Notes under the pieces: model-generated
The model's input: the letters and a program-made list of their open reading frames with translations, nothing else
Told to the model about the DNA's origin: nothing
Database searches by the model: none
Position numbers and translations under genes: made by a program
Shown: positions 1-4,294 of the stretch, piece after piece
Position numbering within the stretch: position 1 is the stretch's first letter
How the letters are laid out: the number at the start of each line of letters is the position of its first letter
IMG/VR virus record: IMGVR_UViG_2703719366_000022
Length of the DNA stretch: 4,294 nucleotides
From: a virus
Lineage: Duplodnaviria; Heunggongvirae; Uroviricota; Caudoviricetes
Reading direction: 5' to 3' (one strand)

Positions 1-513
1 GATATAACGGTTTACCCACACCCCAGCGTGCCGAATCCTGGCTGGCCCCCGTGTCCGCACTGAATGTCCCCTCAGCGCCCTGGGTGAATGCAGAACCACC
101 ACGACAGCATGGTACCAGCANNNNNNNNNNNNNNNNNCATCATGCAGGCAGTGGTCGGCCGGAATGATGTCGTTATACGTACAACTCTCTCCACCCGGAG
201 TTACCGTGCTGCGGCGCGCCAGCTGTTTAATGCGCGGATCCGGAGCATCGTAAGAATCCGGTAACGGAAGCCCTTCACCGTAGGCCATGCCGTTGGACTG
301 TCCGGCAAGCACAACCACGTAGAACCAGTCCGGCTTAGATGAAGGGCCGACCTGTGGATCTCCTTCAATAGCCACCGCCTGCATCAGTGTGTACGGCGTA
401 ATGGCAACCGGTCCGCCGTATGGCTGCCAGCCCTCTTTCAGTTTGTGTGTCAGCTTTTCCGCAAGGTCTGACGGCGACGCCGCCCTGACAACATCATAGT
501 GTTTAAATGCCAT
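1..513 (-). CDS. NanS-p-like prophage esterase (DUF1737-type N-terminus followed by SGNH/GDSL-like hydrolase region with GQSNG motif); 5' portion only, continues beyond window start
   Basis: Minus-strand ATG at 513..511 with GGAGG Shine-Dalgarno 4 nt upstream. Translation begins MAFKHYDVVRAASPSDLAEKLTHKLKEGWQPYGGPVAITPYTLMQAVAIEGDPQVGPSSKPDWFYVVVLAGQSNGMAYGEGLP...; the reading frame remains open to position 1 on the far side of the N-run. The N-terminus matches my recollection of the DUF1737 domain of Stx-phage NanS-p sialate O-acetylesterases, and GQSNG is a typical SGNH catalytic-serine block. Absent from the supplied ORF track, probably because of the N-run. Confidence 0.7.
   Translation of the reverse strand, partial: MAFKHYDVVRAASPSDLAEKLTHKLKEGWQPYGGPVAITPYTLMQAVAIEGDPQVGPSSKPDWFYVVVLAGQSNGMAYGEGLPLPDSYDAPDPRIKQLARRSTVTPGGESCTYNDIIPADHCLHDXXXXXXCWYHAVVVVLHSPRALRGHSVRTRGPARIRHAGVWVNRYI
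121..137. other. Run of 17 N (assembly gap or masked bases) inside the esterase CDS
   Basis: Literal n characters at 121-137; frame continuity across the gap cannot be verified. Confidence 0.95.
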
Positions 514-706
514 GAATCCTCCCGGCCGGGATAATATTGTGAGTAAAATGAGGAGCGGGCTGAAGTCCGGAAGTTACAGGACAATGGCAGAAGAGAGACA
601 ACAGCCCGCAATACGAAAAAGGCCGCGCTATTGCGCAGAGTGATTACTGTCGGATATTATTCGCCAGCTGAAATATTACTTCACGTTTTGTTGTTTATTC
701 CTTGCC

Positions 707-735
707 GCCCGCGTCTCCCTGCGCGGGCTTTTTTT
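707..735 (+). terminator. Rho-independent terminator, plus-strand orientation
   Basis: GCCCGCG (707-713) / CGCGGGC (722-728) 7-bp GC-rich stem, 8-nt loop, followed by seven T (729-735). No T-tract on the opposite strand, so the orientation is plus, opposite to all genes in the window. Confidence 0.55.
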
Positions 736-737
736 GT

Positions 738-766
738 CCATAAGAAAGCCCCTCCGGAGAGGGGCT
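738..766 (-). terminator. Candidate weak intrinsic terminator or structural hairpin
   Basis: Perfect 8-bp stem AGCCCCTC / GAGGGGCT (747-754 / 759-766) with CGGA loop; on the minus strand it is followed by TTCTTATGG, an imperfect U-tract. Confidence 0.3.
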
Positions 767-962
767 GGAGAGTGGCGCTATGTGCCATTGCATGGTGCCG
801 GGTGCCTCCCGGTGAATTCAGTACCAGCACCTGAATCCGCGATTATCCCATATACCTACTCGCTGATTGCCCCTCCGCACAGGGGGATTCACCATGCCAG
901 TTTCTTTTAACAAACTCCCCGCAAACCAGACAACAGTCAACCGCCTGAATTGTGAGACATTT

Positions 963-988
963 AAAAAAAAGGCCCGCAAAAGCGAGCC
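963..988 (-). terminator. Rho-independent terminator closing the tRNA cluster
   Basis: Minus strand reads GGCTCGC-TTTT-GCGGGCC (7-bp stem with one G-U pair) followed by eight T; lies about 15 nt past the 3' CCA of the last tRNA. Confidence 0.6.
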
Positions 989-1002
989 AGGGAAAATAAG
1001 TG

Positions 1003-1079
1003 TGGCGCGTTGTACTGGATTCGAACCAGTGACCGATTGCTTAGAAGGCAATTGCTCTGTCCGGCTGAGCTAACAACGC
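1003..1079 (-). tRNA. argO: tRNA-Arg (anticodon UCU), 77 nt, CCA encoded
   Basis: Hand-folded cloverleaf: acceptor GCGTTGT/ACAACGC, D-stem GCTC/GAGC, anticodon stem ATTGC/GCAAT with loop CTTCTAA, T-arm ACTGG-TTCGAAT-CCAGT, discriminator G, 3' CCA. Fully canonical. Gene symbol is by analogy with the ileZ-argN-argO order I recall for Stx phages. Confidence 0.85.
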
Positions 1080-1092
1080 AGGATACAGATAA

Positions 1093-1169
1093 TGGACCGC
1101 CTTCGGGGACCCGAACTCCGCGCAACCAGCTTCGAAAGCTGGCGCTCTTTCCTGATGAGCTAATGGCGG
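1093..1169 (-). tRNA. argN: tRNA-Arg-like (anticodon UCG) with non-canonical features; possibly degenerate
   Basis: Hand fold: acceptor CCGCCAT/AAGGCGG (one A/A mismatch), D-stem GCTC/GAGC, anticodon stem CCAGC/GCTGG with loop TTTCGAA, T-arm CGGAG-TTCGGGT-CCCCG (one A/C mismatch, G rather than A at position 58), discriminator U, CCA encoded. Gene symbol by positional analogy only. Confidence 0.5.
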
Positions 1170-1176
1170 TATGTGA

Positions 1177-1252
1177 TGGTGGCCCTTGCTGGATTTGAAC
1201 CAGCGACCTGGCGATTATGAGTCGCTCGCTCTCACCACTGAGCTAAAGGGCT
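1177..1252 (-). tRNA. ileZ: tRNA-Ile2 / Met-type (anticodon CAU), 76 nt, CCA encoded
   Basis: Hand fold: acceptor AGCCCTT/AAGGGCC (A1 opposite C72), D-stem GCTC/GAGC, anticodon loop CTCATAA, T-arm GCTGG-TTCAAAT-CCAGC, discriminator A. Closely resembles the E. coli ileX sequence as I recall it (lysidine-modified, AUA-reading). Confidence 0.8.
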
Positions 1253-1262
1253 GGGTCAAAAA

Positions 1263-1291
1263 ATAATAATCAGATGAAAATCAATAATCAA
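1263..1291 (-). promoter_or_regulatory. Candidate sigma70 promoter for the tRNA cluster
   Basis: Minus strand: -35 TTGATT (plus 1286-1291), 17-bp spacer, -10 TATTAT (plus 1263-1268), ending about 11 nt upstream of the tRNA-Ile 5' end. Overlaps the 3' end of the AraC CDS. Confidence 0.35.
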
Positions 1292-1994
1292 GCCCTTGCC
1301 TGGATACATATCTGTCTGGCGGGAAGCCATAATAGCGGTGAAATACAGAAATAAAGTAGGACCAGCTTGAATAACCGCATTTTTCTGCTACAGCCTGTCC
1401 ATATCCATGCCGGGAACATAACATATTGACAGCAACACGCATCCGCTCTTCCAGCAACAAGCGACTGAACATGTGCCCTTCATTTTTCAGTTTTATCTTT
1501 AACAAACTCTCACTCATATGCAGGCGTAACGCAATCGCACCAAGCGTCCAGCTTGCTGATATATCTGTCTGAATTATCGCCCTGACTTTGGCACTTATAC
1601 TGGATAAACATCCACTTAAAAATAATAATATCCGTTCATCTGATTCAAACAGCGACAGGCATGCCATCATAAGAAACATATCCGTGGTATCTCCGGAAAA
1701 TCTCTGGCTGGTAATTAAAGCCTCAGCCAACGCAGGGTTGTTGGGTTCCAGTGACAGATAAAGCGGAACGTCAGTCAGATGAGTTCTTGTCAGCTTATGC
1801 TGAATTTCCAGATATTGACTTACTATGGAATGGTTTATATCGAAAATTTTAACTTTGCCATAATGCATAAGGAAAAGCGCCCTGATGCATTTGGTGGCCA
1901 GAACGACTGAGCCGGGCTTAAGTGACAACGTATCCTTTTCAAGAAAAATATTAATTGGGGAGCAAACCATGATAACTGAACAGACAACAACCAT
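1281..1994 (-). CDS. AraC/XylS-family transcriptional regulator, AppY/GadX/YdeO-like (237 aa)
   Basis: ORF-track protein; C-terminal AraC-type double HTH (...WTLGAIALRLHMSESLLKIKLKNEGHMFSRLLLEERMRVAVNMLCSRHGYGQAVAEKCGYSSWSYFISVFHRYYGFPPDRY). N-terminus MVVVCSVIMVC and C-terminus align with the AppY sequence as I recall it (MDYVCSVVFIC... / [24 protein letters not shown]). AT-rich gene; no clear Shine-Dalgarno, alternative start at 1970. Confidence 0.85.
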   Translation of the reverse strand: MVVVCSVIMVCSPINIFLEKDTLSLKPGSVVLATKCIRALFLMHYGKVKIFDINHSIVSQYLEIQHKLTRTHLTDVPLYLSLEPNNPALAEALITSQRFSGDTTDMFLMMACLSLFESDERILLFLSGCLSSISAKVRAIIQTDISASWTLGAIALRLHMSESLLKIKLKNEGHMFSRLLLEERMRVAVNMLCSRHGYGQAVAEKCGYSSWSYFISVFHRYYGFPPDRYVSRQGLDY

Positions 1995-2029
1995 TATAAT
2001 TTTACTTTCATTAGCAATTGGTTAGTTCA

Positions 2030-2060
2030 ATTATAGCCCCAAAAGGTAAATTATCATCAA
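2030..2060 (-). promoter_or_regulatory. Candidate sigma70 promoter for the AraC-like gene
   Basis: Minus strand: perfect -10 TATAAT (plus 2030-2035) with -35 TTGATG (plus 2055-2060) at a long 19-bp spacer (18 bp if TGATGA is used); about 35 nt upstream of the ATG at 1994. Confidence 0.35.
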
Positions 2061-2088
2061 CACATAAGCAAAGGACTGACAGGTGCCG

Positions 2089-2328
2089 CTAACACCCACC
2101 AGCCGCCCATTTACCACAAATAAAAAAGCCTTCAGGACTGAAGGCGTCTGTAACAACCGAACTGATAGTCTGCCAGACCCGCATAACCAGCTGGGTCAGT
2201 ATTAACTGGCAGCGCTCGCGTGAAAGGTACGTATTCTGCGCAATCTCCCCGACCGTCGCCGGTTCGGTGACGCTTAATTCATCAAACACAACTCTGGCGG
2301 TTTCTGTCATATCCTGCTGTTTCAGCAT
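2089..2328 (-). CDS. Hypothetical small protein (79 aa), doubtful
   Basis: ORF-track entry with normal GC and non-repetitive composition; a possible HTH-like stretch (TVGEIAQNTYLSRERCQLILTQLV). No convincing Shine-Dalgarno, and an intrinsic terminator sits inside its last ~20 codons, so it may not be a real gene as drawn. Confidence 0.3.
   Translation of the reverse strand: MLKQQDMTETARVVFDELSVTEPATVGEIAQNTYLSRERCQLILTQLVMRVWQTISSVVTDAFSPEGFFICGKWAAGGC
2122..2145 (-). terminator. Rho-independent terminator
   Basis: Minus strand reads GCCTTCAGTCCTGAAGGC (6-8 bp stem) followed by TTTTTTATTT; the T-tract ends about 30 nt before the stop codon of the 79-aa ORF. Confidence 0.6.
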
Positions 2329-2451
2329 GTCTTTTTACCCTTTCCGGTTAACGTGACACACCAATAACTCTTGTCGAAAAAGCCAGCAAGCTGAAAGACC
2401 TGTATTAATAACTACCAGCACATTTAACGCACTGCGCTACTTTGCGGGCAC

Positions 2452-2473
2452 AAAAAACCCGCTCAGAGGCGGG
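2452..2473 (-). terminator. Rho-independent terminator downstream of the CPBP gene
   Basis: Minus strand reads CCCGC-CTCTGA-GCGGG (5-bp GC stem, 6-nt loop) followed by six T; about 140 nt past the CPBP stop codon. Confidence 0.6.
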
Positions 2474-2520
2474 GTCAAGCTATGCGGCGAAATAACCACT
2501 CTTAACAGCATACCTGATTT

Positions 2521-2534
2521 TTTACGTACGTAAA
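2521..2534. repeat. Perfect 14-bp palindrome TTTACGTACGTAAA in the CPBP 3' intergenic region
   Basis: Read directly; the sequence equals its own reverse complement. A second short inverted repeat TGCAT-N7-ATGCA lies nearby at 2545-2561. Confidence 0.3.
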
Positions 2535-2614
2535 TGCTTTGCCGTGCATATTTTTCATGCAAATGTCACGTCCTGCTATTTTTCAGTCTTATAAATTTAA
2601 AACCATAGAAAAAA

Positions 2615-3433
2615 TCAATTATGTTTTAAAAATGGATAGGTAAAGAATAACAAGTGACACAGATTCAAACCAAAATGGAAAAGGGTGGCAACCCACAAAC
2701 GCCCACTCCACATCCATGACAATCCATACACAACACCAGATAACGTGGCAAATAATACAAGTAAAGCACCACCTGAATAGTGATAAAAACCAAACAACAA
2801 AGCCGCCACAATTAATGCAACCAATGGAGACGTTACTTCTGATAGCCGTGATTGAATATACCCTCTAAATAATGATTCCTCTGCCAGAGACACAAAAAAC
2901 AAATTAGCCAATATAAACTCTGGCAACCACTCAGGAAAATGAATCTCTGGCTTTAATCCACCAAAAAAAACAGCCAAAAACAGGATAAGAGGAACAGAGA
3001 GCGACAGAGCCCCCCACTTCCACAAAGACACTTCTGATTTTACTTCTTTTTTAAACAAAGAAGATGTACACAGGACTAACAAAAATGGCACCAGCGCTTT
3101 ATCAAAATTAAAATACATTGTATAGGGAGTACTTTGAGGGCCAACAGTAACAGAATTTAGCACTACAGGATTGTGAAACCCTGGCCATAGATGGAAAAAT
3201 AATGCTATGGCTGATAAAACTATGCCAACTTCATATATAGATTTAGCCCAGGCGTTATATTTCCAGTTGAACTTCAAAATAATAAAAAAAACGATTGTAG
3301 CAACAAAAAATAACACCGACCAATCAATAATATCATTAAGCACAGCCAGGACAACAGACACCGTCAACAATGAAAAAGCCACTACCTTATGCCAACTGAG
3401 AGTTGACAGTGACAGTACTAACACAATCCACAT
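2615..3433 (-). CDS. CPBP-family (CAAX protease / Abi, PF02517-like) intramembrane metalloprotease homolog, ~272 aa, about 8-9 predicted TM helices
   Basis: ORF-track frame. I place the start at ATG 3433..3431, because AAGGAG lies 5 nt upstream; the track's first codon at 3439 is GTG. All three CPBP signature motifs are present in order within hydrophobic segments: EExxxR (AEESLFRG), FxxxH (FGFYHY), HxxxN (HFGLN). Sampled 60-nt stretches are about 30-38% G+C by hand count, against about 58% in rusA. Confidence 0.85.
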   Translation of the reverse strand: MWIVLVLSLSTLSWHKVVAFSLLTVSVVLAVLNDIIDWSVLFFVATIVFFIILKFNWKYNAWAKSIYEVGIVLSAIALFFHLWPGFHNPVVLNSVTVGPQSTPYTMYFNFDKALVPFLLVLCTSSLFKKEVKSEVSLWKWGALSLSVPLILFLAVFFGGLKPEIHFPEWLPEFILANLFFVSLAEESLFRGYIQSRLSEVTSPLVALIVAALLFGFYHYSGGALLVLFATLSGVVYGLSWMWSGRLWVATLFHFGLNLCHLLFFTYPFLKHN

Positions 3434-3464
3434 AAGCACTCCTTTTATTTAATGATGAAGATTG

Positions 3465-3493
3465 ATTATCAATATTTTCAATTCACCAGGCAA
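3465..3493 (-). promoter_or_regulatory. Candidate sigma70 promoter for the CPBP gene
   Basis: Minus strand: -35 TTGCCT (plus 3488-3493), 17-bp spacer, -10 GATAAT (plus 3465-3470), about 30 nt upstream of the CPBP ATG. A separate perfect TATAAT (plus 3544-3549) lies about 40 nt downstream of the Q stop but has a poor -35. Confidence 0.35.
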
Positions 3494-3584
3494 CATTTTA
3501 TCTACCTTCCACAATACATGACCATCAAAAAATAAACATGTTAATTATAAACACAGAAAACATAACCCTCATCACTATATATCC

Positions 3585-3956
3585 CTACCGCATATCCATA
3601 TCTAACCGGACATTCAGAGCCATAAGCATTCCTTCAATAATACCTTCCGCTTTATAAAGCCTTTTACCAATAAGCCCATCAGAACATCTATGCTTACGTG
3701 CAAGAGCCATAAATGTCATTCCACCTACGTAATAATCCACCAACAAATCGTGCAAATACTGATTATTCTTGTTTAATCGTGCCATACAACCACAAATTAT
3801 CATGGCGTCATCATCAGAACACTTAGGACGTGATTTCACTTTAGTCGGGATTAATCCTTTAAAACCAGCAGCTATCGAGGGCCATGTTACATCTTCATGA
3901 TTATTTGCTGCCCATGCCCCCCATCGCTCAAGAACCATCTGGATATCACGCGCCAT
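3585..3956 (-). CDS. Q: Phage late-gene antiterminator Q, short (~125 aa) phage-82 / DLP12 QuuD-like type
   Basis: Protein [123 protein letters not shown] closely matches my recollection of E. coli QuuD. I place the start at ATG 3956..3954 (GAGG 8 nt upstream) rather than the track's GTG at 3965. The ATG overlaps the rusA TGA stop, and the rusA-Q order is canonical for lambdoid phages. Confidence 0.8.
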
Positions 3957-4294
3957 CGTTACCACCTCTGATTTCGTAAATCTTCACGCCCAGCCGTCCA
4001 CCTGGCACAGGCTGACCGCGCACAATATTGATTTCATCAAACTGCTCGTCATCAATGAGCACTTCCGCATGCGTCAGCGCATCCAGCGGTGCTTTCAGAA
4101 TGTTGTCCAGGTCACGGCGGCGCTTATCCGGTGGTTCTGCAATAATTTTTATTGCCAGCCGTCCGGACAGGCTTAATTTCAGCCGCTGCTGGCGAACAAT
4201 AAGCGCCACAGCCCGGCGATAACGCTCACCGGCTTTTGATACAAAATATGTGCTGCCACGACGTCGCCAGTAGGTGTTCACCGTCGGCGGGTAA
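3946..4294 (-). CDS. rusA: RusA-family Holliday junction resolvase, 5'-truncated by the window edge
   Basis: Translation ...[36 protein letters not shown]...[62 protein letters not shown] contains the conserved RusA acidic block (RRRDLDN) and aligns with the RusA sequence as I recall it. The frame is open to the window end; the track's M at 4281 is an internal GTG. Confidence 0.85.

Follow-up and report, generated by a model that had tools for sequence, protein, structure and literature searches.

The AraC/XylS-family regulator gene of prophage Sp4 in Escherichia coli O157:H7 is the previously described psrA (ECs1087): gene, cassette and relatives

Introduction

Several AraC/XylS-family regulators are known to control acid resistance in Escherichia coli. 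In K-12, GadW, GadX, YdeO and AppY activate gadE and the AR2 acid-resistance system; AppY acts directly on gadE, at gadE P3, and its DNA binding is abolished by the substitution K170E (PMC10057817). In enterohaemorrhagic E. coli (EHEC), the AraC-like protein PatE (z0321, OI-8), encoded by a prophage, has been described as an activator of both gadE and hdeAB. Two further EHEC proteins, PsrA (z1789) and PsrB (z2104), which are 90% identical according to reviews, raise GadE and YhiF, regulators of the acid fitness island that in turn repress LEE type III secretion. Deletion of psrA has been reported to increase type III secretion, and the gene contributes to persistence in sheep. It has also been reported that PsrB raises acid resistance and binds the gadE and hdeA promoters directly, direct binding having been reported for PsrB and not for PsrA. 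The oxygen-regulated small RNA EvrS, which represses LEE via Z2269, is encoded between z1789 and the esterase gene z1793 (PMC11774850).

Here, the identity, intactness, domain layout, family relationships and genomic setting of a prophage gene for a regulator of this kind are established. A preliminary description made from the DNA sequence had pointed to a prophage-borne AraC regulator of the AppY/GadX kind, of the sort that rewires acid resistance and virulence in EHEC, and had left it to a search whether the gene was already known.

Identity of the Regulator Gene

The stretch of DNA analysed (the window, 4,294 nt) is 100% identical at positions 1-120 and 138-4294 to Sp4 of E. coli O157:H7 Sakai (NC_002695.2), over 4277 aligned bases in all. 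It departs from Sp4 only at 121-137, where 17 N take the place of 126 bp of the esterase gene ECs1088 (NC_002695.2 1180534-1180659), owing either to a gap in the assembly or to masking. The open reading frame (ORF) at 1281-1994 on the minus strand encodes a protein of 237 aa (WP_000261909.1), whose residues 43-237 show 100% identity to the annotated product of ECs_1087, a gene that the Sakai annotation calls an 'AraC-family transcriptional regulator' and places between ECs_1085 (CAAX protease), ECs_1086 and ileZ1-argN1-argO1. An exact-sequence database look-up gave the protein nothing but generic names, without a locus tag. The original paper on PsrA is reportedly that of Tree et al. 2011. We take the name psrA for ecs1087, and hence for this ORF, from a later publication of that laboratory (PMC13502914) and from reviews. 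In addition, the order in the window of AraC gene, tRNAs, STnc100-type small RNA and esterase gene is the arrangement of z1789, EvrS and z1793 (PMC11774850). Taken together, these data lead us to assign a probability of about 0.9 to the reading that the ORF is psrA (ECs1087; z1789 in the EDL933 literature) and that it encodes an intact, functional AraC/XylS-family transcription factor of the lambdoid prophage Sp4 / CP-933M of O157:H7. The regulator foreseen in the preliminary description is thus PsrA, a member of the AppY/GadX/GadW/YdeO group; near-identity to a characterised regulator had been named there as what would remove novelty, and since the ORF is 100% identical to ECs1087 no novelty is left. 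The finding is real, correctly interpreted and already known.

The gene is widespread, with at least 99% identity in 504 complete E. coli genome records, and a psr-like gene is present in 726 of 5426 complete E. coli genomes, with a median copy number of two and a maximum of four. A second O157 copy, EDL933_RS10010, shares 215 of 237 residues (91%) with PsrA, near the 90% that reviews give for PsrA and PsrB, which agrees with the naming of the ORF as psrA; this copy is probably PsrB (z2104), as indicated by the prophage that carries it and by the two copies typical of O157:H7 genomes.

Reviews assign psrA (z1789) to O-island 50 / CP-933N, in conflict with the position of the gene in the finished assemblies examined, three of which put it in Sp4 / CP-933M; this discrepancy is a by-product of the analysis. 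In resequenced EDL933 (CP008957, regions 1620000-1665000 and 1262001-1312000 compared), the identical WP_000261909.1 is encoded in the Sp4-equivalent prophage, which adjoins a tRNA-Ser gene and hyaA. In the potC-adjacent, nleL-carrying prophage of the same assembly the psrA slot is filled by a TerB pseudogene and a DUF3927 gene, and a search for an AraC gene in that prophage found none. It may be that near-identical prophage segments were joined into a chimera in the original EDL933 assembly.

Gene Setting in Sp4

All recognisable genes of the window, as well as the tRNAs, promoter-like sites, hairpins and other features located below, are on the minus strand. Transcription order begins with the RusA resolvase gene (3946-4281), followed by the antiterminator Q gene ECs1084 (3585-3965; Pfam Phage_antitermQ, 174.5 bits) and the CPBP/Rce1-like intramembrane protease gene ECs1085 (2615-3439; Pfam Rce1-like, 70.6 bits), the latter two being considered here as context only. 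Next come ECs1086 (2089-2328), a 79-aa ORF of the ORF list that represents a frameshifted TrmB-family copy, and psrA (1281-1994). The tRNA cluster consists of ileZ1 (1177-1252, anticodon CAT), argN1 (tRNA-Arg, TCG, 1093-1169) and argO1 (tRNA-Arg, TCT, 1003-1079), the two tRNA-Arg genes being identified by both the tRNA call and the Sakai annotation. Beyond the tRNAs are a match to the STnc100 small RNA family (736-926; Rfam 138 bits, E = 1.7e-31, gathering score 47) and, 3' of both, the SASA-family esterase gene ECs1088, whose start is at 513. The order in Sp4 is therefore RusA, Q, CPBP, ECs1086, psrA, ileZ-argN-argO, small RNA and esterase, with psrA located 3' of Q, on one strand with it, in the slot that separates Q from the lysis genes. 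Only 28 nt separate the psrA stop codon from the first tRNA, in keeping with the position immediately upstream of the tRNA cluster given in the preliminary description.

By its position, the STnc100-family match is a candidate for EvrS. HnrS, a newly described prophage small RNA, was also sought in the window and is not there; it is located in Sp9, Sp10 and Sp12, not in Sp4.

Other details of the annotation deserve mention. The tRNA with the CAT anticodon is called tRNA-Ile (ileZ) by the Sakai annotation and by PGAP, and Met by ARAGORN; tRNAs of the ileZ kind are read as Ile once modified with lysidine, and ileZ-argN-argO is a rare-codon tRNA set typical of Stx-type prophages. The rusA and Q ORFs overlap by 20 nt (3946-3965), which suggests translational coupling. 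For the CPBP gene in Sakai, PGAP chose an ATG that follows an AAGGAG ribosome-binding site and is located 6 nt downstream of the GTG start given by the ORF finder.

The PsrA Protein and Its Translation Start

The psrA ORF comprises 714 nt including the stop codon, begins with ATG and encodes its 237 aa with zero frame disruptions, so that the lesion that had been considered as a possible sign of a pseudogene does not appear on translation. Residues 155-230 match Pfam HTH_18 (36.6 bits, cut-off 33.6) and the protein also matches HTH_AraC (35.3 bits, cut-off 26.6), which agrees with the AraC-type C-terminal HTH described from the sequence. The protein is laid out as an N-terminal domain resembling that of GadW, YdeO and AppY (residues ~1-130) and an AraC two-HTH DNA-binding domain (~134-233), that is, it has the C-terminal two-HTH domain of ~100 aa by which AraC/XylS proteins are recognised. 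Residues 134-233 match the solved DNA-binding domain of GadX (3mkl, E = 1.5e-18), and Rns was matched too. AlphaFold2 run on the single sequence gave a mean pLDDT of 38.5, too low to use. The AT-richness attributed to the gene was confirmed, with 42.3% GC in psrA versus 45.5% in the window, and in the stretch 1801-2100, which covers the upstream region of psrA, the GC content is 37.7%.

The length of the product requires some discussion. In the Sakai RefSeq record ECs_1087 has 588 nt and encodes 195 aa from a start at M43, without residues 1-42, and a clear Shine-Dalgarno sequence is absent before the ATG at 1994, from which it could be argued that the true product is the shorter protein. We regard this as quite improbable, however, given that the first 42 residues can be aligned to the N-terminal ends of GadW, AppY, YdeO and the PatE candidate discussed below, and that the motif M-x-x-(V/T)-C-S-V begins at residue 1 in all five proteins. 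Moreover, PGAP annotates a product of 237 aa, PsrB and the allele of a Stx2k phage have the same 237-aa frame and start, and the conserved promoter-like site lies upstream of M1. The 237-aa start is thus favoured because the N-terminus of PsrA aligns from M1 onwards with those of its relatives, and the Sakai start of ECs_1087 is probably 42 codons too short (window 1871-1994), a second by-product of the analysis.

Promoter-Like Sites and Terminator-Like Hairpins

The candidate promoter of psrA noted in the preliminary description, with its perfect -10, was recovered at 2030-2057 as ATGATA (2057-2052), a 16-nt spacer and TATAAT (2035-2030), scoring 10 of 12, the best in the region. The promoter scan as a whole was not above chance (5 sites versus 3.1 +/- 2.0 expected), and for this reason the site alone proves nothing. 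Across the psrA, psrB and phiSTEC1575-Stx2k loci, its TATAAT is invariant and its -35 nearly so, and this conservation, together with the match to the consensus, suggests that the site is the psrA promoter. Transcription starting ~7 nt past the -10 would give a leader of ~30 nt ahead of the ATG at 1994.

Just 5' of this site, in the tail of the frameshifted ECs1086, there is a terminator-like hairpin (2128-2145; GCCTTCAGTCCTGAAGGC then TTTTTT), which is kept together with its T-run in the psrB locus and differs in its 5' arm in the Stx2k phage. Another terminator-like hairpin (2458-2473; CCCGCCTCTGAGCGGG then TTTTTT) is found 3' of the CPBP gene. A second promoter-like site, TTGATT-17 nt-TATTAT (1263-1291; 9 of 12), recognised solely by its match to the consensus, extends over the final codons of psrA and could start the tRNA transcript a few bases ahead of ileZ. 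A terminator-like hairpin at 971-988 (GGCTCGCTTTTGCGGGCC then TTTTTTTT) closes the tRNA cluster.

The psr Cassette and Its Neighbours

BLASTN comparisons delimit a block of ~1.5 kb (962-2473), here the psr cassette, which contains the small TrmB-like ORF, psr, ileZ-argN-argO and the terminator. Its nucleotide identity is 92.6% over 1507 nt to the psrB locus of EDL933 and 90.8% over 1516 nt to phiSTEC1575-Stx2k, and its flanks are unrelated or patchily similar. The upstream edge falls at window 2462-2473, where the hairpin that follows the CPBP gene is found, and the downstream edge at 962, next to the hairpin that ends the tRNA cluster. In phiSTEC1575-Stx2k (OQ243220.1 16390-19071) Q is followed by a few small ORFs, then by an intact TrmB-family ORF, psr, three tRNAs and finally stx2k A and B. 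Other lambdoid phages, e.g., phage 1H12, carry more distant homologues (40% identity) in the same slot, between Q and the holin gene. The psr cassette lies in the same Q-to-lysis slot as stx.

phiSTEC1575-Stx2k is an inducible Stx2k phage in which the psr cassette stands directly upstream of stx2k A and B, so that one late-region stretch downstream of Q carries the toxin genes together with a Psr-type regulator.

The small TrmB-like ORF is directly upstream of psr in all three loci. Intact copies of this winged-helix ORF encode 65 aa in the EDL933 psrB locus and 73 aa in phiSTEC1575-Stx2k, whereas in Sp4 PGAP annotates ECs1086 as 'TrmB family transcriptional regulator, frameshifted', and its translation departs from the intact copies after ...LILTQLVM. 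To our knowledge, no function has been reported for it.

The cassette also bears on the suggestion, made in the preliminary description, that the regulator could control the neighbouring CPBP gene. In Sp4 the CPBP gene (2615-3439) and psrA (1281-1994) are close and on the same strand, and both are AT-rich accessory genes of the Q-to-lysis slot, so that PsrA might be thought to regulate mainly its own prophage neighbourhood, with the effects on gadE and LEE being secondary. Nevertheless, the CPBP gene was sought in the EDL933 psrB and phiSTEC1575-Stx2k loci and is absent from both, that is, the cassette persists at 91-93% nucleotide identity in two loci that lack the supposed target, and in both comparisons similarity stops between ECs1086 and the CPBP gene, at the terminator-like hairpin. 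Since the literature, in addition, credits the psrA phenotype to GadE and YhiF, a mainly local role is judged very improbable, and control of the CPBP gene by PsrA found no support. CPBP is better seen as a separate accessory gene, merely adjacent in Sp4, because the cassette mosaic ends short of it, and the host regulators GadE and YhiF are retained as the route by which PsrA acts.

Alleles and Selection on psr

The psrA, psrB and phiSTEC1575-Stx2k alleles each have 237 codons and align without gaps. Pairwise dN/dS among the three is 0.22-0.43, with values of 0.13-0.27 in the DNA-binding half versus 0.37-0.57 in the N-terminal half. This pattern and the full length of the alleles indicate purifying selection on psr. 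A pseudogene reading of psrA was considered and ruled out by the intact ORF and by dN/dS below 1.

That psrA merely survives, silenced or decaying, in a cryptic prophage and plays no role in the lysogen is scarcely credible, for although Sp4 is degraded and carries IS629 and frameshifted genes, the adjacent ECs1086 among them, although the region has the AT-richness typical of H-NS-silenced DNA, and although reviews state that deletion of psrB has little effect, psrA is full length and of the same length as two diverged alleles with dN/dS of 0.22-0.43, is 100% conserved in hundreds of genomes, and has in the literature both a secretion phenotype on deletion and a regulated mRNA.

Regulation and Proposed Mechanism

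Activation of gadE and AR2 genes by PsrA is taken here from the literature on PsrA and PsrB. By analogy, PsrA would act like GadX, GadW, YdeO and AppY: its two-HTH domain would bind AT-rich sites at promoters of the acid fitness island, resulting in activation or de-silencing, and its N-terminal domain may serve in dimerisation or signal input. In the lysogen, psrA would be transcribed from its own site at 2057-2030, behind the hairpins at 2473-2458 and 2145-2128. The antiterminated late operon of the prophage may also read through psrA, as the gene is downstream of Q and on the same strand.

The regulation of psrA itself has been addressed in the study of HnrS, in which psrA mRNA was lower in a mutant lacking HnrS and higher after an HnrS pulse, an effect that the authors judged to be indirect (PMC13502914). 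HnrS represses hha, which encodes a partner of H-NS. Silencing of psrA by H-NS/Hha would fit with this repression of hha.

A further proposal, which goes beyond the established role of the protein and which we consider doubtful but worth stating, is that PsrA output is coupled to prophage induction through Q antitermination, besides its own promoter, so that the SOS response and toxin expression would be tied to activation of GadE and to the shutting off of type III secretion; the small TrmB-like ORF could act as a second regulator of the cassette.

PsrA is one link by which EHEC prophages commandeer host GadE/YhiF and so set the timing of type III secretion, and it also has a part in persistence in ruminants. 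As this role is established biology, finding the gene again adds nothing new to it. The generic names under which PsrA appears in public databases do mean that automated annotation misses a characterised virulence regulator.

Comparison with Known Systems

The closest system is ECs1087/PsrA of Sakai itself, to which the ORF is 100% identical in DNA and protein, in the same prophage Sp4 and with the same gene order; there is no sequence difference, and what differs is the shorter annotated start in Sakai (195 aa). PsrB (z2104, OI-57 / CP-933O) is 91% identical over all 237 residues, and its gene likewise belongs to a psr cassette that includes the small TrmB-like ORF and tRNAs. It differs from PsrA by 22 amino acids, the larger share of which falls in the N-terminal half (dN/dS 0.54 vs 0.27), its locus has only two tRNAs and lacks the CPBP gene, and the phenotype of its deletion is reported to be weaker than that of psrA. 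The allele of phiSTEC1575-Stx2k is 89% identical to psrA.

Among the regulators of K-12, the chromosomal GadW, GadX and YdeO and the AppY of prophage DLP12 can be aligned with PsrA from end to end, with identities of 29-35%. BLASTP gave 35% between PsrA 1-230 and GadW 1-234 (E = 5e-39), 31% between PsrA 1-233 and YdeO 1-233 (E = 3e-31) and 28.7% between PsrA 1-232 and AppY 1-236 (E = 1e-33), the last in accordance with the likeness to AppY at both termini given in the preliminary description. In an alignment of seven proteins, the identities to PsrA were 38% for ECs0287 (the PatE candidate), 34% for GadW and 29% each for YdeO, AppY and GadX; the closest K-12 paralogue is therefore GadW (34-35%), not AppY (29%), and the PatE candidate is nearer still. 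PsrA shows the collinear full-length similarity, N-terminal domain included, that characterises the GadW/YdeO/AppY/PatE-like subgroup, and shares with GadW, YdeO, AppY and the PatE candidate the N-terminal M-x-x-(V/T)-C-S-V. GadX has a different, longer N-terminus without the V-C-S-V motif. The helix S-x-S-L-(L/I)-K is common to all the regulators compared, GadX included, as SESL(L/I)K in PsrA and its K-12 relatives, and within the S-E-S-L-L-K of PsrA, in the first HTH, K166 aligns with the K170 that AppY needs for DNA binding, a lysine kept in 7/7 proteins.

Orthology of PsrA to YdeO or GadX was tried with the NCBIfam equivalogs NF007407 (YdeO) and NF007432 (GadX) and rejected, the scores being 104.1 bits against a cut-off of 348 and 88.5 bits against a cut-off of 500, respectively, both far below. 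PsrA is therefore a paralogue within the group and not an orthologue of any K-12 member.

ECs0287 of Sakai Sp1, which from its location is probably PatE, is with 38% full-length identity the closest to PsrA of the seven regulators compared, Psr alleles aside. It differs from PsrA in its setting, since another prophage carries it, with a position at the end of the remnant Sp1 instead of the Q-to-lysis slot that psrA occupies in Sp4.
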